From Acidobacteriota bacterium (GTDB taxonomy: Bacteria; Acidobacteriota; Vicinamibacteria; Vicinamibacterales; CAVVIG01), in the NCBI GenBank assembly GCA_046728115.1, contig JBKPDW010000072.1, forward strand, positions 1,166 to 65,165: DNA of 64,000 bases. The letters are read 5' to 3'. How positions within the stretch are numbered: the stretch's first letter is position 1; every line of letters begins with the position of its first letter. The notes below the pieces were generated by a model that saw only the letters and a list, made by a program, of their open reading frames with translations, was not told the DNA's origin and did not search any database. Positions 4,602 to 18,789 of the stretch are shown piece by piece. The translations under genes and the position numbers were made by a program.

Positions 4602-5477
4602 ATGCGACGCCGGGAGTTTCTGGCAGCGCTGGCCGCAACGGGGCTGGCGCCGGCCGCGCGGGCGCAGTCGCCGCCGGGCACCGTCCGCAAGGGGCGGATC
4701 AAGCAGGCGCTGATGCGCTTCAACTTCGGGCGCGACACGAAGCTGTCGTTCGACGACATGTGCCGCGAGGCCGCGCGCGTCGGCTGCCACGGCTTCGATC
4801 TCGTCGGGCCGCAGGACTGGCCGACGCTCAAGAAGTACGGGCTCATCTGCACCATGGCGCCAGCCATGGGCGTCACCATCAGCGACGGGCTGATTCGGCC
4901 GGAACTCCACGATGCAATCGAGCGCGCGATGCACAGCGAGATCGATCAGTGCGCCGCGAATGGATACCCGAACATCATCACGGTCGGCGGCGAGCGGCGC
5001 GGCATCGGCTACGAAGAGGGGAAAGACCACGCGGTCGCCGTGCTCAACCGGGTGAAGGCGCACGCGGAAGACAAGGGCGTCACGATCTGCATTGAGGTCG
5101 TCAACAGCAAGTACACCGATCCCGAGTTCGGCCGCGCCGACGCCATCTTCGACCACCTGGCCTGGGGCGTGGATCTGTGCAAGCGCGTGAGCTCGCCGCG
5201 AGTGAAGATCCTCTTCGACATCTACCACGTCCAGATCATGGAGGGTGATGTCTGCGCCAACATTCGCGAGTACTTCCCCTGGATCGCCCACTTTCACGCG
5301 GCCGGTGTCCCGGGCCGCCACGAGCTCGACGACACACAGGAGATCAATTACCGGTTTGTGGCGAAGACGATCGCGGACCTCGGGTTCACCGGCTACGTCG
5401 CGCACGAGTACCGGCCCTCACCGGGACGCGACCCGCTCGAGAGCCTGAAGCAGGTTTTCCAAATCATGGACGTGTGA
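4602..5477 (+). CDS. Hydroxypyruvate isomerase-like / xylose-isomerase-like TIM-barrel protein with a Tat-type signal
   Basis: MRRREFLAALAATGLAPAARA twin-arginine leader. The C-terminal block DIYHVQIMEGDV...HFHAAGVPGRHELDDTQEINY...GYVAHEY is typical of Hyi-family proteins. Confidence 0.8.
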   Translation: MRRREFLAALAATGLAPAARAQSPPGTVRKGRIKQALMRFNFGRDTKLSFDDMCREAARVGCHGFDLVGPQDWPTLKKYGLICTMAPAMGVTISDGLIRPELHDAIERAMHSEIDQCAANGYPNIITVGGERRGIGYEEGKDHAVAVLNRVKAHAEDKGVTICIEVVNSKYTDPEFGRADAIFDHLAWGVDLCKRVSSPRVKILFDIYHVQIMEGDVCANIREYFPWIAHFHAAGVPGRHELDDTQEINYRFVAKTIADLGFTGYVAHEYRPSPGRDPLESLKQVFQIMDV

Positions 5478-5491
5478 GCGGCCGAGGGTTG

Positions 5492-5528
5492 GGGAGTAGG
5501 GAGTAGAGATTGGATTGGGGGTAGGGAG
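5492..5528 (+). repeat. Purine-rich simple repeat GGGAGTA x2 followed by GATTGGATTGGGGGTAGGGAG
   Basis: Read directly in the spacer 5478-5533. The last GGGAG (5523-5527) can serve as Shine-Dalgarno for the ATG at 5534. Confidence 0.5.
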
Positions 5529-5533
5529 CCAGT

Positions 5534-7810
5534 ATGAAACGTATTCCCCGGTGGATTGCCTTTGTTCTCATCAGCGGCGTCATTGCTGGGCTCCTTGTTT
5601 ACTCCGCCGACGGCGTGCACGCGCAGCGGCGAGCTCCAGAGGGGTACATCTCCGGCGTGGTCAAAAGCGCGCAGGGCGCCGAGGCCGGCGTCTGGGTCAT
5701 CGCCGAGACCAAGGATCTCCCGACCAATTTCATCAAGATCGTCGTCACCGACGATCAGGGCCGATTCATGATGCCGGAGCTGCCCCCCGCGAGCTACAGC
5801 GTCTGGGTCAGGGGCTATGGTCTCGTCGATTCGACGCCAGTGCAGATGAAGCCGCGCACCGACAGCGTGACGTTGACGGCGGTGGCGGCGAAGACGCCGC
5901 TGGAAGCGGCGAAGGTGTACCCGGGCAACTATTGGCTATCGCTGCTCGAGCCGCCCGCCGCGAGCGAGTTTCCGGGCACGGGACCGCAGGGCAACGGACT
6001 CGGGCCGGCGATGCAGAGTCAGAACCACTGGATCAACTCGCTGAAATCGGACTGCAACTTCTGTCATCAGCTCGGGAACGCTGAGACGCGCTCCGTGGAT
6101 CACGTCCTCCAGGCCAAGCCCGAGCTGAAAACGCACGCCGAAGCATGGGAATGGCGGCTCGGCACCGGCGTGCGCGGGACGGCCATGTATGCGGTGATCA
6201 ACACGCAGGGGAAGGAACGCTCGCTGAAGACGTATGCCGATTGGACCGAGCGCATCGCCAAGGGCGAGGTGCCGCCCTCGCCGGCACGTCCGACCGGCGT
6301 CGAGCGCAATCTCGTGGTCACGCTGTGGGACGTCGGCGACGATCATTCGTTTATGCACGACGAGATTTCGACCGACAAGAACCATCCGACCGTGAACGCG
6401 AATGGACGCGTCTACGCGGTGTCGGCAGGCCACGGGCAGCTCGTGGCGCTGGATCCGTACGAAAACAGCACGTTCACCATGGACATTCCAACGCGGGAAG
6501 CCAAGGAAAAAGTGCCGTCGCGGTTTCCGGCGCCGAATCGGCCGTCGCTCCATTGGGGCAACGAGCACTTGTGGGGAAACCCGCCGTACGATCCGGCCGA
6601 CCCGCACAACCCGATGTTCGACAGCAAGGGCCGCGTCTGGATGACGTCGAAGATTCGCAGCAATGCCGATCCATCGTGGTGCAGCGATGTCACCAACAAA
6701 TTCGCGGAATGGTTCCCGCTCCGCAACAGTGCCCGTCAGGCGTCCTACTACGATCCCAGGACCAACAAATTCACGTTGATCGACACCTGCTTCAGCACGC
6801 ACCACCTGCAATTCGACAACGATCCCGACGAGACGCTGTATTTCAACGAGCTCACTGGTCCGATGTTCGGCTGGATCGACACGAAGGTGTACGACGAGAC
6901 CCATGACGAGCAGAAGGCGGTCGGCTGGTGCGGCCAGGTGCTCGACACCAACGGCGACGGCAAGATCACGAAACCGTGGAACATGCCAGCAGGTCGCGGC
7001 GGCGATTCAGTGGTCTACCAGGGCGACACGGCCGGAGCGCCTGCGCCGGGAAATGCGGCCGCAGCCGGTGCACGCGCAGCGCCAGCGGGCCGCGGTGCGC
7101 CGCCGTTCGACCCCAAACTGGACACGATGGTCAGCTACAGCATGTATTCGGTGATTCCGAGCCCCGTGGACGACACTGTCTGGGGTGCCAGCGAGCGATT
7201 CCCGGGATATCTCATTCGTCTGCAGCGGGGCAGCAATCCGCCCGCCACTTGCATGACGCAGATCTTCAAGGTCCCCGAACCCGGCTTCGATCCCCGGGGC
7301 ATCGACATCGACAGCCACGGCGTGGTCTGGACGGCCCTGGCTGCCAGTAGTCATCTCGCGAGCTTCGACGTCCGCAAGTGCAAGGATCTTGACGGTCCGG
7401 CCAGGACCGACGGCAGTCTGTGCCGCGAAGGCTGGACTCTCTATCAGACGAAGGGACCGAAATTGCGGGGGACGGAAATCCCGGCCGACTTTCACTATTA
7501 CAACTGGGTGGATCAGCACAACATCTCGGGATTCGGCGCCGATACGCCGTTCGCCACCGGGTCGAATTCCGATGCGCTGCTGGCGCTGAACCCGCAGACG
7601 CGCGAGTGGATCACGTTGCGGGTGCCCTATCCGCTCGGTTTCTACTCGCGCGGGATGGACGGCCGGATCGACGATCCCAACGCAGGATGGAAAGGCCGCG
7701 CGCTGTATGCGAATTACGGTACGCACTTCGTGTGGCACATCGAGGGGGGCAAAGGCACGAAGGGCAAGATCGTCAAGTTCCAGATTCGGCCGACTCCGAT
7801 GGCTCGATAG
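5534..7810 (+). CDS. Secreted CarboxypepD_reg-like domain protein with one CxxCH (CNFCH, 6053-6067) and a large beta-propeller-like C-terminal region
   Basis: N-terminal signal, then GYISGVVKSAQGAEAGVWVIAET...DDQGRFMMPELPPASYSVWVRGYG (carboxypeptidase-regulatory fold pattern). Same architecture as 56313..58031. Confidence 0.75.
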   Translation: MKRIPRWIAFVLISGVIAGLLVYSADGVHAQRRAPEGYISGVVKSAQGAEAGVWVIAETKDLPTNFIKIVVTDDQGRFMMPELPPASYSVWVRGYGLVDSTPVQMKPRTDSVTLTAVAAKTPLEAAKVYPGNYWLSLLEPPAASEFPGTGPQGNGLGPAMQSQNHWINSLKSDCNFCHQLGNAETRSVDHVLQAKPELKTHAEAWEWRLGTGVRGTAMYAVINTQGKERSLKTYADWTERIAKGEVPPSPARPTGVERNLVVTLWDVGDDHSFMHDEISTDKNHPTVNANGRVYAVSAGHGQLVALDPYENSTFTMDIPTREAKEKVPSRFPAPNRPSLHWGNEHLWGNPPYDPADPHNPMFDSKGRVWMTSKIRSNADPSWCSDVTNKFAEWFPLRNSARQASYYDPRTNKFTLIDTCFSTHHLQFDNDPDETLYFNELTGPMFGWIDTKVYDETHDEQKAVGWCGQVLDTNGDGKITKPWNMPAGRGGDSVVYQGDTAGAPAPGNAAAAGARAAPAGRGAPPFDPKLDTMVSYSMYSVIPSPVDDTVWGASERFPGYLIRLQRGSNPPATCMTQIFKVPEPGFDPRGIDIDSHGVVWTALAASSHLASFDVRKCKDLDGPARTDGSLCREGWTLYQTKGPKLRGTEIPADFHYYNWVDQHNISGFGADTPFATGSNSDALLALNPQTREWITLRVPYPLGFYSRGMDGRIDDPNAGWKGRALYANYGTHFVWHIEGGKGTKGKIVKFQIRPTPMAR

Positions 7811-12748: not shown

Positions 12749-13153
12749 TCAGTCGCGTGCGAGCTTGAAATCGCCTTTGCTCTCGCCCTGCGTCCAGGTA
12801 CCGGAGAGCGTGCGGTTATACGACCCGAGATTGGAGAGCTTGCCGTCAATGACGTAACGAACAGCTGCGCTCTTGTCCTTCGCCGCGCGCTCGGCCTCGA
12901 TGTGGATGGTCCACGTGCTCGAGTCGAGCGTGGCGGTTTTGAACGGCACGGCGTCTGGCCCGGGATCGATCGTGCCGTCGATTTTTTTCCCGTCCCACGT
13001 CATGACGACGGTGACGTCGTGGCGCTGTTGAGGCGACGAACCCCAGTCGCCGTACCACGTGCCGACGAGCGGATGCCCTTCCTGGGCGAATGCCGTCGAG
13101 GCCAGCGCGACGACCGCGCACAACAGTCGTGCCCTAGGCCTCGCTCGTGTCAA
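12749..13153 (-). CDS. Small secreted hypothetical protein (TTG start)
   Basis: Signal-like MTRARPRARLLCAVVALASTAFAQE. The TTG start overlaps the upstream stop (TTGA at 13150-13153). Last gene of the 15562-to-12749 operon. Confidence 0.6.
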   Translation of the reverse strand: MTRARPRARLLCAVVALASTAFAQEGHPLVGTWYGDWGSSPQQRHDVTVVMTWDGKKIDGTIDPGPDAVPFKTATLDSSTWTIHIEAERAAKDKSAAVRYVIDGKLSNLGSYNRTLSGTWTQGESKGDFKLARD

Positions 13154-14031
13154 GGGATGATTCTCCGCTGGCGCGACACCGAGGCGTCGGCGCCAACCAT
13201 CCCTTGCGGCGAGCGGTTGTTATCCTGACAGATGTATTCGAACAACTCGGTGCCGGGACTCCATCGCAGGATGAAGCCGCCGGTCCAGATGGCTGTGTAG
13301 GCGCCCGGGTCGTCTATCGTCGCTTCATACTTCAACGAGTTGAAATCGCTGCGTGTGAAGCGCTCGACCAGATGGAGCTGCTCGGTGTGCGGGGTGCCCT
13401 CTCGGTCCATCCAGAACTTCGTGTTGAAGCCGACCGTGTCAACGACGAGCGCATCGCCCTCCCAGCGGCCGACCGAATGTCCGTAATAGCTCGGATCGAG
13501 GTCCTTGGGATGCGGCCGGCCGTCCATGTAGATCGTGCGGAATGTGTGCGGCCCGCCGACGTCGAAGATGTACACGCGCTTCATCTCCGGCATGTCCACG
13601 AATTCCACGCCGTACGGCGTGATGAACTCGCGCGGTCCGCCCGAGGCCTTGCATCGGGTGTGCGGCTCGTCTCGCTCGAAGTTCGCCTGGCGTGCGGCGT
13701 GCAGCGCTCGGGCCCACAGCTGAAAAGGCACGGCTTCGAGCGTGATGTTGTCGGGTAGATGACTGGTCGGGTTCGCGCGGTTGACGCTCTTCGGGTTGAG
13801 CGACAGTTGGACGATGCCAGCGGGCGTCCACAGTCCTTTCTCGCCCGGAGGCGGCCCGAGATTGACACGACCGTCCGGCCAATGCGGCGTCGGCTTCGAC
13901 GGCGGCGCTCCTCCTCGCCGCTGCGCGTTCGCCGACATCGATAGCACCATCGCGGCCACGAACGCACCGAACGCGAAGACCGCGAAGGAGAACAGCCGAC
14001 CCAACGCCGCGCCGGTCGGGACGCGTGTCAT
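13150..14031 (-). CDS. Secreted conserved hypothetical protein (stand-alone copy of the C-terminal domain of 14435..15562)
   Basis: Shares PxWPDG...PGExGxW, GRWEGDxLVVDTxGFNxxFW, PHTEQLHLVER, DPGAYT, LRWxPG and EYxCQDN blocks with the fusion protein upstream. ATGA overlap at 14028-14031. Confidence 0.7.
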   Translation of the reverse strand: MTRVPTGAALGRLFSFAVFAFGAFVAAMVLSMSANAQRRGGAPPSKPTPHWPDGRVNLGPPPGEKGLWTPAGIVQLSLNPKSVNRANPTSHLPDNITLEAVPFQLWARALHAARQANFERDEPHTRCKASGGPREFITPYGVEFVDMPEMKRVYIFDVGGPHTFRTIYMDGRPHPKDLDPSYYGHSVGRWEGDALVVDTVGFNTKFWMDREGTPHTEQLHLVERFTRSDFNSLKYEATIDDPGAYTAIWTGGFILRWSPGTELFEYICQDNNRSPQGMVGADASVSRQRRIIP

Positions 14032-14438
14032 CGCGTTGATGGGTCACCGCTCGAGGCGGCTCCCAGCGTTTTGCCGTCGGCGGTCTTGACCGTCCTGGCG
14101 TTGGCTCGCTTGCCGCCGTCGCGCGCGAGGGCGCCCGCCACGGTGACGACGTCGCCGATTTTCATCGTGTCGCGCAGCCACCCGCGCTGCTGCAGCTGAT
14201 GCGGCGCGCCCATCTCGAGGGCCCACCGGACCGTCTCACCTTCGTCGTCCTTGACGTTGATGTAGAACCACACGTGCGGGTTCATCCAGTCGATCCGCGT
14301 GACCACCCCCGTCAGCGTGATCGGCTTGCTCGCGTCGAACTCCGCGGCAAAGGAATGATGGGCGCTCGCCGGTGCGGATCGCAGGGCAATCACGGCTCCG
14401 AGCGCGATGACTGTGGACGTCAGACGTTTTGGTGTCAT
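14028..14438 (-). CDS. DUF6152-like small secreted protein (mature N-terminus predicted HHSFAAEFD)
   Basis: Track ORF 14028..14960 trimmed to Met175 (MTPKRLTSTVIALGAVIALRSAPASA|HHSF...). ATGA overlap with the upstream stop at 14435-14438. Confidence 0.7.
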   Translation of the reverse strand: MTPKRLTSTVIALGAVIALRSAPASAHHSFAAEFDASKPITLTGVVTRIDWMNPHVWFYINVKDDEGETVRWALEMGAPHQLQQRGWLRDTMKIGDVVTVAGALARDGGKRANARTVKTADGKTLGAASSGDPSTR

Positions 14439-15562
14439 GGCCGATTGTCCTGGCAAAAATACTCCGGCATGTCCTCGCCGGGCACCCACCGCAGCGTCCA
14501 GCCGGCGGACCACTGACGCGTGTAGGCGCCCGGATCCTCGATGGTCACATCGTAGCGCAGTGTACCGAAATCGGGCCGCGCGAGCCGCTCGACGAGGTGC
14601 AGCTGCTCGGTATGCGGCAGCCCGCCGTTGGAGAACCAGAAGCGCTCGTTGAAGCCCTTGGTATCGACGACCAGCGAATCGCCCTCCCAGCGCCCGACAG
14701 CGCGGCCAAAGTAGAGCGGGTTGTCGGCATCCCCCTCGACCTGGCCTTTCTGTTCGCGGCCGTCGGTGTAGATGAGACGCCAGTTTCGATTGCCGCCGCC
14801 CATCATCACGAACACGCGCTGGCGATCGCGCTGCTCGAGGAACTGGATGCCGTAGCGGTTCTGAAACTGCCGCGGCCCGCCCGGCGGCAGGCAGTGCACG
14901 AACATCGGATCGTCCTTGAGGAAGGCGCGCTGGCGGTAGACGTACAGATCGCGGGCCCAATCCTGGAACGGCGCGACGCGAGGCGCGTCGGCCACGCTGC
15001 GCAGCAGGCCGTCGGCATCTGCTTCCACGACGACACCGCGCTCGACCAGCGTTGTCGCGCTCGGACTCGCCCAGTAGCCCGTTTCGCCGGGCACCGCGCC
15101 CAGTCGCGGCTGTCCGTCCGGCCAGCGGGGCGTCGGCTCGTTCGTGGCGGCTGGTGCCGCGCTCGGGCGCGCGAAGAACACGCGCTGTCCGGTGCGCGCG
15201 ACCACCATCGACATCGACCAGGCTTGCTTGCTGCCGTCGCGCGCGGCGATTCCCTCCACCGTGACGACGTCGCCGACGCTCAGGGTATTCCGCGTCCAGC
15301 CCTGCCGCCGCAGATCAACCGGACTGTCGAGCTCGATTGCCCAGTTGACAACGCGGCCAGGCGACTCCGCGACGTTGACGAACACGTGTGCATGGGGATT
15401 CGCCCAGTCGATGGCGGTGACCGATCCGCGCAGCGTCACCTGTTTCGCGCTGTCGAACTTCGCCGACACCGCGTGGTGCGCGGTGAGCGGCGCCAGCCCG
15501 AGCAGTAGCGCGCCGCATCCGGCAACGAACCGTCCAGGCCACCACAGGAAATCGCCGGTCAT
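14435..15562 (-). CDS. Secreted fusion protein: DUF6152-like N-domain plus the domain found alone in 13150..14031
   Basis: Trimmed to Met47 (MTGDFLWWPGRFVAGCGALLLGLAPLTA|HHAVSAKFD...). The N-half parallels 14028..14438 and the C-half parallels 13150..14031. Confidence 0.7.
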   Translation of the reverse strand: MTGDFLWWPGRFVAGCGALLLGLAPLTAHHAVSAKFDSAKQVTLRGSVTAIDWANPHAHVFVNVAESPGRVVNWAIELDSPVDLRRQGWTRNTLSVGDVVTVEGIAARDGSKQAWSMSMVVARTGQRVFFARPSAAPAATNEPTPRWPDGQPRLGAVPGETGYWASPSATTLVERGVVVEADADGLLRSVADAPRVAPFQDWARDLYVYRQRAFLKDDPMFVHCLPPGGPRQFQNRYGIQFLEQRDRQRVFVMMGGGNRNWRLIYTDGREQKGQVEGDADNPLYFGRAVGRWEGDSLVVDTKGFNERFWFSNGGLPHTEQLHLVERLARPDFGTLRYDVTIEDPGAYTRQWSAGWTLRWVPGEDMPEYFCQDNRP

Positions 15563-15623
15563 ATGTGGTGCGTACACACGCCTTGGCGGAGGGTCAATTC
15601 TGGACCCTTTCGCTCGAGGAAGT

Positions 15624-15632
15624 GTATACAAT
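15624..15632 (+). promoter_or_regulatory. GTATACAAT, candidate -10-like element 7 nt upstream of the PQQ dehydrogenase-2 ATG
   Basis: Read directly. The same 9-mer occurs at 62018-62026 in the fae divergent promoter region. No Shine-Dalgarno at normal spacing before 15640. Confidence 0.25.
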
Positions 15633-15639
15633 TCGCGCA

Positions 15640-17382
15640 ATGAAGCACCTTCTTTTATCGGCCCTGGCTGCCATCTCGGCCGCGATGTTTGCAGCGACAT
15701 TGTCCGGCCAAACTGCCGTGTCGGTCACTGCGGACCGGTTGGTCGGCGCCCAGAACGAGCCGAACAACTGGCTGATGATGAACGGCGATTATGGTTCCAC
15801 CCGGTACTCGAAGCTGACGCAGATCAACCGTCAGAACGTCAAGAACCTTCGTCTGGCCTGGGCGATGGCGCTGGGCGGCATGCAGGACGTGGGACAGAAC
15901 GGTCCGGAGACCGAGATGCATCCGCTCGTCGACAACGGTTTCCTGTACACGAGCGACGGCTGGGGCACGATCTACAAGATCGACGGCCGCGATGCGAACA
16001 AGGGCGCGTTCGTCTGGGTGGCCGACCCCGGCGTCAAGCACCAGGGGAACCTGCCGCGCACCCGCGGGATTGCGCTCTGGGAAGACCTCGTGATCGCCAA
16101 TCTTCCCGACGGCCGGGTGATTGCGGTGAATCGCGACACTGGCGAAATCGTGTGGGACCGAATGGTGGCCGTAACCAACGAATTCGGCAGCAGGGAACGA
16201 TTCAATGCGGCGCCGATCACGGTCGACGGCAAAGTGATCGTCGCGAACGGCGCGGGAGACGCCAAGACGCGCGGCTGGATCGCGGCGCTCGACGCGCGAT
16301 CGGGCAAGGAGTTGTGGCGCTGGTACGTCGTGCCGAAGCCCGGCGATCCTGGCAGTGAAACGTGGAAGGATAAGAACAACGCGTGGAAGACCGGCGGAGG
16401 CGGCCTCTGGCAAACCGGTTCGTACGACCCGGCGACGAAGCTCACCATCTGGGGCACCGGGAATCCAGTACCCATCTACGATCCTCAGGCGCGCCCCGGC
16501 GACAACCTCTACACGAACGCCGTCGTGGCGCTGAACATCGACACCGGCAAGCTCGCCTGGTACTTCCAATACACGCCGAACGATTCCTGGGACTTCGACG
16601 AAGTCGGCGTGCACATGCTGTACGACGTCACGTTCGGCGACCGCAGCCGCAAGGTCGTCGGCCATTTCGCGCGCAACGGGTTCTACTACTCGCTCGACCG
16701 CACGAACGGCGAGTTCCTGAAAGGGGAACAGTACGTCAACGATTTGAATTGGACGAAGGGTCTCAATCCCAGAACGGGCAAGCCGCTCGACTACGATCCC
16801 AACCTCGACGTGCAAATCTACAATCCGGCGGCGCGGGCGCTGCGCGGCGACCCCACCAAGCGAAGCTGTCCGACGTGGCACGGCGGCATCGCGCACCAGC
16901 CAACCGCCTACAACCCGGTGAAGCACATTGCGTATGGCGCTGGCATCGAAGGCTGCTTCTCGCAAAACGGCGCAGCCGTGGCATTCCTGTCACCTGAGGG
17001 CGGCATCGACGAAAAGAAAAGTGAGAAGCGTACGTACAGCACCGATCTGTACTATGGCTCGATGACGGCCTTCGATACCGTCAACCACAAGGTGCTCGCA
17101 AAGGTAAAAACCGACATCGAGATTCGCTCGGGCGCAACCGACACGGCCGGCGGTCTGGTATTCACGGCGTTGCAGGATGGCTGGGTCGTTGCCTACAACG
17201 ACGAGACGCTCGAGGAGCTCTGGCGCTTCAACGTCGGCACCCCGCTCAAGGGTGCCCCGGTGACGTACGCTGTCGGCGGGAAGCAGTATCTCGCGGTGCA
17301 ATCCGGAGGACGCCACCTGCATCCCACGAAGTTCGACAACCTCGAGAACTCGAGTTATCTGTTCGTCTTCGCGTTGAACTGA
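15640..17382 (+). CDS. PQQ-dependent dehydrogenase, methanol/ethanol family (paralogue 2), D-F-D motif, no vicinal Cys pair
   Basis: Trimmed to MKHLLLSALAAISAAMFAATLSGQ (signal). Family blocks present: NWLMMNGDYGSTRYS, GGGLWQTGSYDPATKLTIWGTGNPVP, NDSWDFDEVG. The segment aligned to the CC loop reads HQGNLPRTRGIAL. Confidence 0.9.
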   Translation: MKHLLLSALAAISAAMFAATLSGQTAVSVTADRLVGAQNEPNNWLMMNGDYGSTRYSKLTQINRQNVKNLRLAWAMALGGMQDVGQNGPETEMHPLVDNGFLYTSDGWGTIYKIDGRDANKGAFVWVADPGVKHQGNLPRTRGIALWEDLVIANLPDGRVIAVNRDTGEIVWDRMVAVTNEFGSRERFNAAPITVDGKVIVANGAGDAKTRGWIAALDARSGKELWRWYVVPKPGDPGSETWKDKNNAWKTGGGGLWQTGSYDPATKLTIWGTGNPVPIYDPQARPGDNLYTNAVVALNIDTGKLAWYFQYTPNDSWDFDEVGVHMLYDVTFGDRSRKVVGHFARNGFYYSLDRTNGEFLKGEQYVNDLNWTKGLNPRTGKPLDYDPNLDVQIYNPAARALRGDPTKRSCPTWHGGIAHQPTAYNPVKHIAYGAGIEGCFSQNGAAVAFLSPEGGIDEKKSEKRTYSTDLYYGSMTAFDTVNHKVLAKVKTDIEIRSGATDTAGGLVFTALQDGWVVAYNDETLEELWRFNVGTPLKGAPVTYAVGGKQYLAVQSGGRHLHPTKFDNLENSSYLFVFALN

Positions 17383-17386
17383 AGGT

Positions 17387-17881
17387 CTACTTCGGAAACT
17401 CGCGGCAGGCGTCGACGTCCGAGCCCCAGTACTCGATGCACTTGGCGCGATCCATCGGTCCTTTGCCGACGACTTTTTGTAAGAGGAAGTCGGCGACCAG
17501 ATCGATTTCCCGCTGCTGGAACGTCGCGGGCGGATCGGGCATCGGCGATTTCAGATCGGCCTGCTTCATGCCATAGCAGCGGCCGTCGCTGTAGGCGAAC
17601 TTGTCGAAGGCCGGCATGCCGGTTCCCGGCCGTCCACATTTGATCGTCTGAATCAACCTGGCGCGATCGAGCCTCGTTTCACGCAGGTTCGAGCCGTCCG
17701 GCATCTGGCTGTCCATCTTGCGGCCGTCAGCCGCCCACCCGTGACAGGCCTGGCAGTCGCCCTTCTGCAGGTACAGCCGCATCCCCTCGGCGACATCGGC
17801 CGCGTCAGGCGCCTGGGCGTGGCTGGCCGCGACCACGCACGCCGCCAGCATCAGCACCGCTGCGCCAAGCGTCCTCTTCAT
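17387..17881 (-). CDS. Secreted mono-haem c-type cytochrome (CQACH)
   Basis: ATG at 17881 (MKRTLGAAVLMLAACVVAASHAQA), with a GAGGAG Shine-Dalgarno 6 nt upstream on the coding strand. The stop lies 4 nt from the convergent PQQ dehydrogenase-2 stop. Confidence 0.8.
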   Translation of the reverse strand: MKRTLGAAVLMLAACVVAASHAQAPDAADVAEGMRLYLQKGDCQACHGWAADGRKMDSQMPDGSNLRETRLDRARLIQTIKCGRPGTGMPAFDKFAYSDGRCYGMKQADLKSPMPDPPATFQQREIDLVADFLLQKVVGKGPMDRAKCIEYWGSDVDACREFPK

Positions 17882-17922: not shown

Positions 17923-18789
17923 TCAGCGCGGCACGCCGAGCAGTCCTTCGGCTTTCAGGATCAGATTCATCTGCGCGACCGCCTGCTGGAGGCTCTCATC
18001 GCTGATGCGCCTGGTCAAGCCCTCGAGGTCGACCGCAAGCCTCGTGCCCGCTGAAGGGTCTGTCGACGAGCGTGTTTGCCGCGCGGCCGCGATGGCCTGA
18101 TCGATCAATTCCAGAACGGTCGAAAGCGACGACAAGACCTGAGCGGCCTTCAAGGCCATGTCACCCGTCGCGCCGTCGGCGGTCATCGCCAGACCGAGAT
18201 GCTGCACGGCGCCCGCTGTCGCCTTCTTGACCCCGTAGCCGGCGCCCGGCCCTTTCGGTTCGACGCCGGGATCGAGCGCGTGCAGGACGTGTCCCGCATG
18301 AAGGTGGACGTCATCCAGCCTCGAGGCCTTGGCCGCGAGCCTGGCGTGCTCGAGGGCCACTCGCGCTTCGTCGATGGCGACCGGGAGGAATCCGCGTGAG
18401 CCAGGCGTATCGCGCCAGGTCGTCATCACATGGAGGATGTGAAGATGCGCAGGAATCGCCTCGATTCGCGCGACGAGAATGGCGTCCCCGCTCAGTTCGC
18501 CGGTGATTCGTACGGGCCGCCCCGCGTACAACGGCAGACCCATCGCGTCTTGATTCGCGATCGGCACCACACGGCCGTCACGATCGACGAGCACGTACTT
18601 CTCGAGCGCCTTGATGCAGGCGAGCAGACATTGCCGGTCGGTGTCGCCGGCGGCTCTCGATTGATGCGAGGCGCCGCACAGGTTGTCAGAGAGTCTGCCG
18701 GTGAAGGATTGCTGCGCCTCGAGATGCGACCGCGCGCCGCCGCCGAGGAACGCCAGGACCGCAAAGAGCGCAAAGACGTGCTTGAACAC
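17923..18789 (-). CDS. Secreted hypothetical protein with an N-terminal Cys cluster and two His clusters (HLHILH, HLHAGHVLH)
   Basis: Signal-like MFKHVFALFAVLAFLGGGA. CGASH...CLLAC near the N-terminus. No family recognised. Confidence 0.6.
   Translation of the reverse strand: MFKHVFALFAVLAFLGGGARSHLEAQQSFTGRLSDNLCGASHQSRAAGDTDRQCLLACIKALEKYVLVDRDGRVVPIANQDAMGLPLYAGRPVRITGELSGDAILVARIEAIPAHLHILHVMTTWRDTPGSRGFLPVAIDEARVALEHARLAAKASRLDDVHLHAGHVLHALDPGVEPKGPGAGYGVKKATAGAVQHLGLAMTADGATGDMALKAAQVLSSLSTVLELIDQAIAAARQTRSSTDPSAGTRLAVDLEGLTRRISDESLQQAVAQMNLILKAEGLLGVPR

Follow-up and report, generated by a model that had tools for sequence, protein, structure and literature searches.

We examined a 64,000-nucleotide (nt) stretch of DNA (the window) from an Acidobacteriota bacterium of the order Vicinamibacterales (GenBank assembly GCA_046728115.1, contig JBKPDW010000072.1), and centered our analysis on a gene for a dehydrogenase dependent on pyrroloquinoline quinone (PQQ) (P0001, hereafter also the query; 15640..17382) together with the cytochrome c gene that converges on it (P0002; 17387..17881). 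We consider it likely that these genes form a two-gene periplasmic oxidation module, built on a dehydrogenase whose lineage would have deleted its Cys-Cys loop and swapped a metal-binding Glu for Asp, and which retains the other three residues of the metal site, namely Asn, the catalytic Asp and the extra Asp. In the mechanism that we propose, P0001 most likely binds PQQ scavenged from the environment, an external source being proposed because this genome makes none, and probably binds a trivalent lanthanide. The enzyme would oxidize an alcohol, aldehyde or sugar-type substrate, and electrons would pass singly from P0001 to the adjacent cytochrome P0002 and from there to the respiratory chain.

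Active site of the dehydrogenase

Sequence homology identified P0001 as an eight-bladed PQQ propeller of the methanol/ethanol superfamily with a predicted periplasmic location, and its score against Pfam PF01011 (216.8 bits) lay above the cut-off of 26.7. A signal peptide was predicted because the N-terminus is hydrophobic and homology to solved periplasmic enzymes starts downstream of it. In a phmmer search of all Protein Data Bank sequences, the closest solved structures were PedH (6zcv; E 3.9e-71, 243.6 bits) and then ADH-IIB (1yiq). The features of the gene and protein are given here, with conservation counted over 80 aligned rows (the query and 79 orthologous loci):

15640..17382, + strand: PQQ-dependent dehydrogenase gene P0001, 580 amino acids (aa), from the open reading frame (ORF) and its translation
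15640..15708, + strand: predicted Sec signal peptide MKHLLLSALAAISAAMFAATLSG, from the hydrophobic N-terminus; cleavage site approximate
16039..16077, + strand: equivalent of the Cys-Cys loop, HQGNLPRTRGIAL, residues 134-146; 3-4 residues shorter, with no cysteine
16249..16275, + strand: metal-ligand loop GAGDAKTRG, in which Asp207 (16258-16260) replaces the Glu ligand (PedH E199)
16462..16464, + strand: Asn275, metal ligand in a GTGNP motif, equivalent to PedH N281; 78/80 rows
16591..16602, + strand: D318-F-D320-E321, equivalent to PedH D323/D325; D318 and D320 in 80/80 rows, E321 in 74/80
16867-16869 and 16954-16956, + strand: C410 and C439, the only two cysteines; conserved in 75/80 and 76/80 rows

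A ring formed by vicinal cysteines occupies the Cys-Cys loop in MxaF, XoxF, ExaA and PedH. The initial annotation, made from the sequence alone and without database searches, had reported that this loop contains no cysteine in P0001, and the phmmer alignments to 6zcv and 1yiq agreed, placing a gap of 3-4 residues precisely at the P-C-C-D of PedH and the A-C-C-D of ADH-IIB. The alignments revealed no Cys pair displaced to another position, the sole cysteines of P0001 being C410 and C439, both distant from the loop, and no CC dipeptide occurred in any of the 80 aligned rows. We take C410 and C439 to be the likely equivalent of the distal structural disulfide of methanol dehydrogenases such as MxaF. 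The same annotation had noted that two other dehydrogenases in the window, its paralogues 1 and 3, carry the Cys-Cys pair, and they do so in the contexts VCCGRVNRG and ACCGLVNRG.

The residues around the missing ring were retained. The Arg-Gly that closes the loop HQGNLPRTRGIAL (R143-G144) was conserved, and D318, W257, R143 and R345 aligned with residues of PedH and ADH-IIB and were kept in 76-80 of the 80 rows (W257 in all 80). We take W257 to be the PQQ-stacking Trp, and R143, a presumed PQQ contact, and R345 to be PQQ-binding Arg residues.

The block NDSWDFDEVG, in which the initial annotation had read a D-F-D at 16591-16599, indeed gives D318-F-D320 in the 580-aa translation. By alignment to PedH, D318 is the predicted catalytic base and a metal ligand, and D320 is the extra Asp that is diagnostic of lanthanide-type enzymes; the Glu that follows it (E321) is typical of the query's clade. 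The D-x-D matches D323-F-D325 of PedH, in line with the lanthanide signature read from this block, but the Glu ligand is replaced by Asp207, a residue kept in 76 of the 80 rows. This Glu-to-Asp replacement is a second departure from the canonical site, and it was missed in the initial sequence reading. The predicted metal site of P0001 is thus Asp/Asn/Asp/Asp, and lanthanide dependence is predicted from the D-x-D motif.

Distribution, selection and phylogeny of the lineage

More than 7,600 relatives of P0001 were found in the databases, the best 120 of them at 78-91% identity, and orthologues sharing 74-89% identity were present in no fewer than 458 species-level genomes. The carriers belong to the Acidobacteriota (Vicinamibacterales, Bryobacterales and other Terriglobia) and, among the Alpha- and Betaproteobacteria, to Burkholderiales, Xanthobacteraceae and Beijerinckiaceae. 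All 160 genome loci among the matches listed were from metagenome-assembled genomes (MAGs), and these matches included no cultured carrier of the exact orthologue, the best plasmid match being 40.5% identical. Against five close orthologues, the Nei-Gojobori ratio of nonsynonymous to synonymous substitution rates (dN/dS) was 0.09-0.14 for P0001, and the same method gave 0.07-0.13 for the partner cytochrome. With an intact ORF and these ratios, P0001 is under purifying selection and is not a decaying paralogue, a fate that the initial annotation had left as a way in which its reading might fail.

An exhaustive HMMER search of 1.84 billion cluster representatives returned 18,476 matches, and beyond the query's tight group the next full-length relatives were only 38-49% identical. 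The large set was aligned by MAFFT --auto, and an IQ-TREE phylogeny was built from 82 rows, comprising the query, 8 orthologues, 50 representatives, 21 paralogues from the query's own genome, PedH and ADH-IIB. The tree contains no XoxF or MxaF row; the pNGR234b protein intended as the XoxF anchor was PedH-like. The query fell within a 32-row clade with a Shimodaira-Hasegawa approximate likelihood ratio (SH-aLRT) support of 100, and inside it within a 28-row subclade (SH-aLRT 99), every row of which lacks Cys-Cys. An Asp stood at the Glu position in 20 of these 28 rows. The rest of the 32-row clade includes P0144, P0147 and P0150, all of which retain both Cys-Cys and Glu. No other paralogue from the query's own genome fell in the 32-row clade, and PedH and ADH-IIB lay outside it.

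The suggestion in the initial annotation that this paralogue belongs to an atypical clade was therefore borne out, the 28-row subclade being monophyletic, devoid of Cys-Cys and still in possession of the D-x-D. Its wider question, whether enzymes that lack Cys-Cys and have D-x-D form a clade, was answered in the affirmative for the query's lineage but not for the family, in which the Cys pair has been lost repeatedly elsewhere, with about 10 changes of state on the tree. Cys-Cys and Glu tended to occur together, Glu being present in 25 of the Cys-Cys-bearing rows and missing from 1, and present in 12 of the Cys-Cys-less rows and missing from 44. The idea that the two were lost in concert throughout the family was set aside, as the association was not significant with only 7 independent contrasts.

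The relative of the query found on a plasmid, WP_201082443.1 of Skermanella sp. TT6 (plasmid pTT6-1; the 40.5% match), is closest to P0144 of the 32-row clade (53% identity). It keeps AVACCGVNNRG, GAEYGIRG (with the Glu) and D-Y-D-A, whereas P0001 has neither the Cys-Cys nor the Glu.

The genome that carries the window is 8.0 Mb in 636 contigs, is 95.8% complete, and encodes about 39 PQQ-propeller paralogues, the nearest of which is 37% identical to P0001. The canonical Cys-Cys occurs in only 6 of the 39 and D-x-D in 32, so that the lack of Cys-Cys is the rule within this genome. Other arrangements of cysteines were also seen among these paralogues. Those on contigs C618, C202, C315 (- strand) and C311 (at 13755) have no vicinal Cys-Cys and have D-L-D-E, and in this group two cysteines bracket the metal-ligand loop, e.g., GLTGCGRFDGLGCY and GLVGCDRYGNDGCW; these may form a different active-site disulfide. 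Two distant paralogues, on C601 and C139, carry Cys-Cys elsewhere, in a loop that aligns close to the region of the Glu ligand (YACCTFRGS and YECCKFQGS), and have a Cys-rich insert ahead of the D-x-D position.

The partner cytochrome and the surroundings of the pair

The gene that converges on P0001 had been described as encoding a mono-heme cytochrome c, and its CQACH site and its match to Pfam PF13442 (Cytochrome_CBB3; 36.3 bits, cut-off 27) agree with that description. Its features, and those of the junction, are as follows:

17387..17881, - strand: mono-heme class I cytochrome c P0002, 164 aa, with signal peptide
17741-17755, - strand: heme site C43-Q-A-C46-H47 (CQACH) of P0002
17615-17617, - strand: axial Met89 of P0002, read from 70 orthologues
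17383..17386, no strand assigned: 4-nt spacer between the convergent stop codons, TGA at 17380-17382 (+) and TAG at 17387-17389 (-)

A homologue of this cytochrome was the only conserved neighbor across the 80 loci. It lay on the opposite strand and converged on the dehydrogenase in all 68 loci having one (68/68), the pairing held in about 86% of loci across phyla, and at 11 of the 80 loci no cytochrome was seen in the flank. Pairwise identities of dehydrogenases and cytochromes were correlated (r = 0.74, Mantel 0/999) over the mature regions of 63 clean loci; an analysis with untrimmed, over-extended N-terminal ORF columns had given r = 0.08 and was discarded for the mature regions. In this genome there is exactly one cytochrome of the P0002 family and one dehydrogenase of the query's clade. 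The conserved convergent pairing, the co-divergence and the one-to-one copy number all support the earlier proposal that P0002 is a plausible electron acceptor of P0001.

Cytochromes of the P0002 family also adjoin distant members of the dehydrogenase clade, being convergent beside P0126 (33% identity) and divergent beside P0131 (40% identity), two relatives whose dehydrogenases are themselves only 40-49% identical to the query. In Skermanella sp. TT6, the cytochrome WP_201082442.1 lies beside WP_201082443.1; it is 35% identical to P0002 (E 5e-30) and shares its extra cysteines, but its gene is co-directional with that of the dehydrogenase and not convergent as here. Since the cytochrome family is found beside distant and Cys-Cys-bearing relatives, the partnership seems to be older than the loss of the Cys pair. 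Downstream of the dehydrogenase and cytochrome c genes on pTT6-1 (4902-7281) come two hypothetical genes and genes for a DUF4142 protein and a molybdopterin/2Fe-2S dehydrogenase.

Across 70 cytochromes of the family, C43, C46, H47 and M89, together with C82, C102, C148 and C159, were invariant or nearly so. An AlphaFold2 model of P0002 built with the 70-sequence alignment was that of a class I cytochrome, with a predicted local distance difference test score (pLDDT) of 81.6, compared with 41.9 when no alignment was used. The nearest folds were cytochrome c6 and SorU, with template modeling (TM) scores of 0.61-0.67 on target length, although these matches were weak (E 3e-3 to 1e-2, 17-22% identity). 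SorU is the dedicated acceptor of a periplasmic dehydrogenase, as we propose for P0002; P0002 exceeds SorU and c6 in length by about 50 residues and carries four additional cysteines that are invariant. Its signal peptide (17837-17881, - strand, residues 1-15) has an L-A-A-C15 consistent with a lipobox, and this copy of the protein might thus carry a lipid anchor; in the orthologues Cys15 was not conserved, Ala being the commonest residue there (27/70).

The initial annotation had given the distance between the two stop codons as 4 nt, which the sequence bears out. The convergent arrangement is conserved and the 4-nt spacing is not: 4 loci had a stop-to-stop gap of 0 nt or less, 21 a gap of 1-30 nt, 23 one of 31-200 nt and 4 one of 201-700 nt, and at 16 of 68 loci one or two genes, mutually unrelated, were inserted between the pair. 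The largest apparent overlap of the stops was 197 nt in a single outlier and otherwise no more than 28 nt, and the upper end in most adjacent pairs was +281 nt. A bidirectional terminator at the junction was sought and rejected, as no hairpin beyond chance was found, and RNA folds across the junction on the two strands gave z-scores of -0.05 and +0.79. The initial annotation had concluded from the 4-nt gap that the two transcripts must overlap; an overlap of their 3′ ends is plausible, and transcription may instead end by a Rho-dependent mechanism or within the opposing gene.

Upstream of P0001, one candidate element was located:

15627..15632, + strand: TACAAT, a -10-like hexamer, 7 nt 5′ of the P0001 ATG

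A sigma-70 scan found no full promoter upstream of the gene, and the sequence 15617-15639 contains no Shine-Dalgarno at the usual distance before the ATG. A TACAAT this close to the ATG, together with the lack of a well-spaced Shine-Dalgarno, suggests that the P0001 mRNA may be leaderless or nearly so. The orthologues differ upstream, with an AGGAG and then an ATG located about 5 codons farther 5′. The 9-mer GTATACAAT was considered as a shared regulatory element and dropped, since its enrichment in the window was not significant and it was not conserved 5′ of the orthologues.

Other genes around the pair encode secreted proteins. Two of these, at 14435-15562 (-) and 13150-14031 (-), have in common a C-terminal domain bearing the motif FN.KFW...PHTEQLHLVERF, and one of the two also has DUF6152; homologues of this pair turn up close to the dehydrogenase at about 13 of the 80 loci, mostly from Bryobacterales, in varying positions and strands. 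Immediately 5′ of the cytochrome gene and in the same orientation, 17923-18789 (-) encodes a 288-aa secreted protein that had no Pfam or NCBIfam match and no homologue in the 80 related loci.

Cofactor supply, alternative explanations and implications

PqqC (TIGR02111) was missing both here and in 12 of the 14 other carriers that were searched. The remaining two, a Burkholderiales and an alphaproteobacterial MAG, gave matches of more than 370 bits in the same search, and the detection of PqqC in them validated the method. This genome yielded only weak radical-SAM matches for PqqE and no true PqqE. Because PQQ synthesis is missing in most carriers, these organisms probably scavenge PQQ. Among Acidobacteria, PqqU has been reported from the class Vicinamibacteria only, and its bearers are described as depending on scavenged PQQ because they do not synthesize it (PMC12124388). 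Acidobacteria are also already known for very extensive sets of PQQ dehydrogenases of the lanthanide type (PMC11996626), and the roughly 39 paralogues of this genome fit such published reports. The window also carries a tetrahydromethanopterin (H4MPT) formaldehyde-oxidation island with fae (62068 region; contig C72:62559-63035), and methylotrophy, or a dedicated methanol-dehydrogenase role, was considered for P0001. This was not supported: Fae (TIGR03126) was found in this genome only and in none of the 14 other carriers, so it is missing from 14 of 15, and the proximity looks incidental.

Among known systems, the PedH/ExaF type (6zcv, 6zcw) resembles P0001 in its eight-bladed PQQ propeller and periplasmic location, and has the same Asn ligand and the same D-F-D, made up of the catalytic and the extra Asp. 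Identity to PedH is about 31-35%, with the Cys-Cys loop deleted and the Glu replaced by Asp in P0001; PedH lies outside the query's clade in the tree, and the partner cytochrome of P0001 comes from a different family. The type II quinohemoprotein ADHs (ADH-IIB 1yiq, 1kb0, 1kv9; 235-241 bits to P0001) pass electrons to a c-type heme, but their cytochrome domain is fused C-terminally whereas that of P0001 is a separate protein encoded convergently, and ADH-IIB, unlike P0001, has Cys-Cys, Glu and a D-Y-T of the calcium type. XoxF and MxaF with cytochrome cL (XoxG/MxaG) belong to the same superfamily and have a dedicated soluble cytochrome c acceptor, and XoxF has D-x-D; their similarity to P0001 is lower (173-221 bits), P0001 lacks their Cys-Cys, and neither xoxG nor xoxJ was among the conserved neighbors of the P0001 orthologues. 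TIGR04528 (acido-empty-quinoprotein group A) likewise describes a PQQ-dehydrogenase-like propeller of Acidobacteria without PQQ synthesis, but P0001 is not a member by score (345.8 bits in a partial match, with the cut-off of 650 not reached) and keeps the full catalytic and metal site.

Several observations weigh against the reading of P0001 and P0002 as a PQQ- and lanthanide-dependent redox pair. P0001 scored 406.9 bits against NCBIfam TIGR03075, below the curated cut-off of 480, and on its family scores it is placed within the superfamily and outside that curated subfamily. To our knowledge, the Asp-for-Glu site is unlike that of every characterized lanthanide or calcium enzyme, and the D-x-D may mispredict the metal. 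We found no biochemistry in the literature for any member of the query's clade. P0002 is not of the cL/XoxG or c550 type; cytochrome cL 7c90 ranked 36th (E 0.5), and P0002 matched none of the NCBIfam cytochrome cL families. Lastly, the vicinal disulfide ring is reported to be essential for efficient transfer from ExaA to cytochrome c550 (Mennenga 2009, cited in PMC8546591), and this result argues against coupling to a cytochrome in an enzyme without the ring.

It is conceivable that P0001 is an "empty" quinoprotein, a propeller that binds no PQQ and has another role, in binding or with another cofactor. The pattern of missing PqqC and PqqE, the partial TIGR04528 match with TIGR03075 not reached, and the disappearance of the Cys-Cys ring that packs on PQQ would all suit such a protein. 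However, the TIGR04528 score is far under its cut-off, purifying selection has left W257, R143, R345, the catalytic Asp and the full set of metal ligands almost unchanged, and a dedicated, co-diverging c-type cytochrome points to a redox enzyme; two carriers moreover have PqqC, and scavenging of PQQ is documented in Vicinamibacteria (PMC12124388). We judge the empty quinoprotein improbable. If P0001 does bind PQQ, its metal could be calcium or another ion in place of a lanthanide, the D-x-D being ancestral and the shorter Asp re-tuning the site. The Glu-to-Asp replacement has no counterpart in the residue alignments with PedH or ADH-IIB, and D-x-D, present in 32 of the 39 paralogues whatever their type, is a poor discriminator here. 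We nevertheless find a metal other than a lanthanide rather unlikely, given that D320 is invariant (80/80) and followed by a conserved Glu, that an all-carboxylate site suits hard trivalent ions, and that, according to published mutagenesis, XoxF and ExaF need the extra Asp to coordinate a lanthanide (bioRxiv 10.1101/2020.02.25.964783).

The cytochrome, in turn, could be merely a neighbor, with a quinone, a different cytochrome or a cupredoxin as the acceptor. The reported need for the disulfide ring in ExaA-c550 coupling speaks for this, as do the convergence of the two genes, which are hence not co-transcribed, and the loci with intervening genes (16/68) or with no cytochrome in the flank (11/80). 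Set against this are the pairing across phyla at a constant relative orientation, the divergence of the two proteins in step, their one-to-one occurrence in this genome, and the presence of the same cytochrome family beside distant clade members, in an operon-like arrangement in Skermanella; we therefore give little credence to mere adjacency. That P0001 is a decaying or unexpressed member of the set of about 39 copies seems scarcely credible, even with so many paralogues, a family score below the cut-off and no canonical promoter or Shine-Dalgarno, because the ORF is intact, dN/dS is about 0.1, identity is 74-91% across hundreds of genomes and the catalytic residues are kept. The reading of P0001 and P0002 as a periplasmic oxidation module is the one that we prefer. 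As for how it arose, we put forward only tentatively, and with some doubt, that a widespread clade crossing phyla dropped the disulfide, rebuilt its metal site entirely from Asp and Asn, and kept a dedicated cytochrome from before the loss.

This uncharacterized branch belongs to an already known kind of enzyme, so that the value of the finding is mechanistic and ecological and not conceptual. Among alcohol-oxidizing quinoproteins, the vicinal disulfide counts as a hallmark and as part of the electron path to cytochrome c, and it goes unmentioned in the recent surveys consulted. In the soil lineage described here, which is highly conserved and abundant in the environment, the disulfide is missing and the metal site altered, and the enzyme is still tied to a dedicated cytochrome. 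If the enzyme is active with P0002, the disulfide ring would be dispensable for electron transfer from a quinoprotein to a cytochrome, and the Asp-for-Glu site may shift metal preference, for example toward smaller or heavier lanthanides, relative to XoxF or PedH. The Cys-Cys-bearing sister pair in the cultured Skermanella sp. TT6 offers a natural comparison of enzymes with and without the ring and the Glu. The lineage also refines the prediction of lanthanide enzymes from D-x-D alone, and adds to the picture of soil Acidobacteria that run dozens of PQQ enzymes on a scavenged cofactor.

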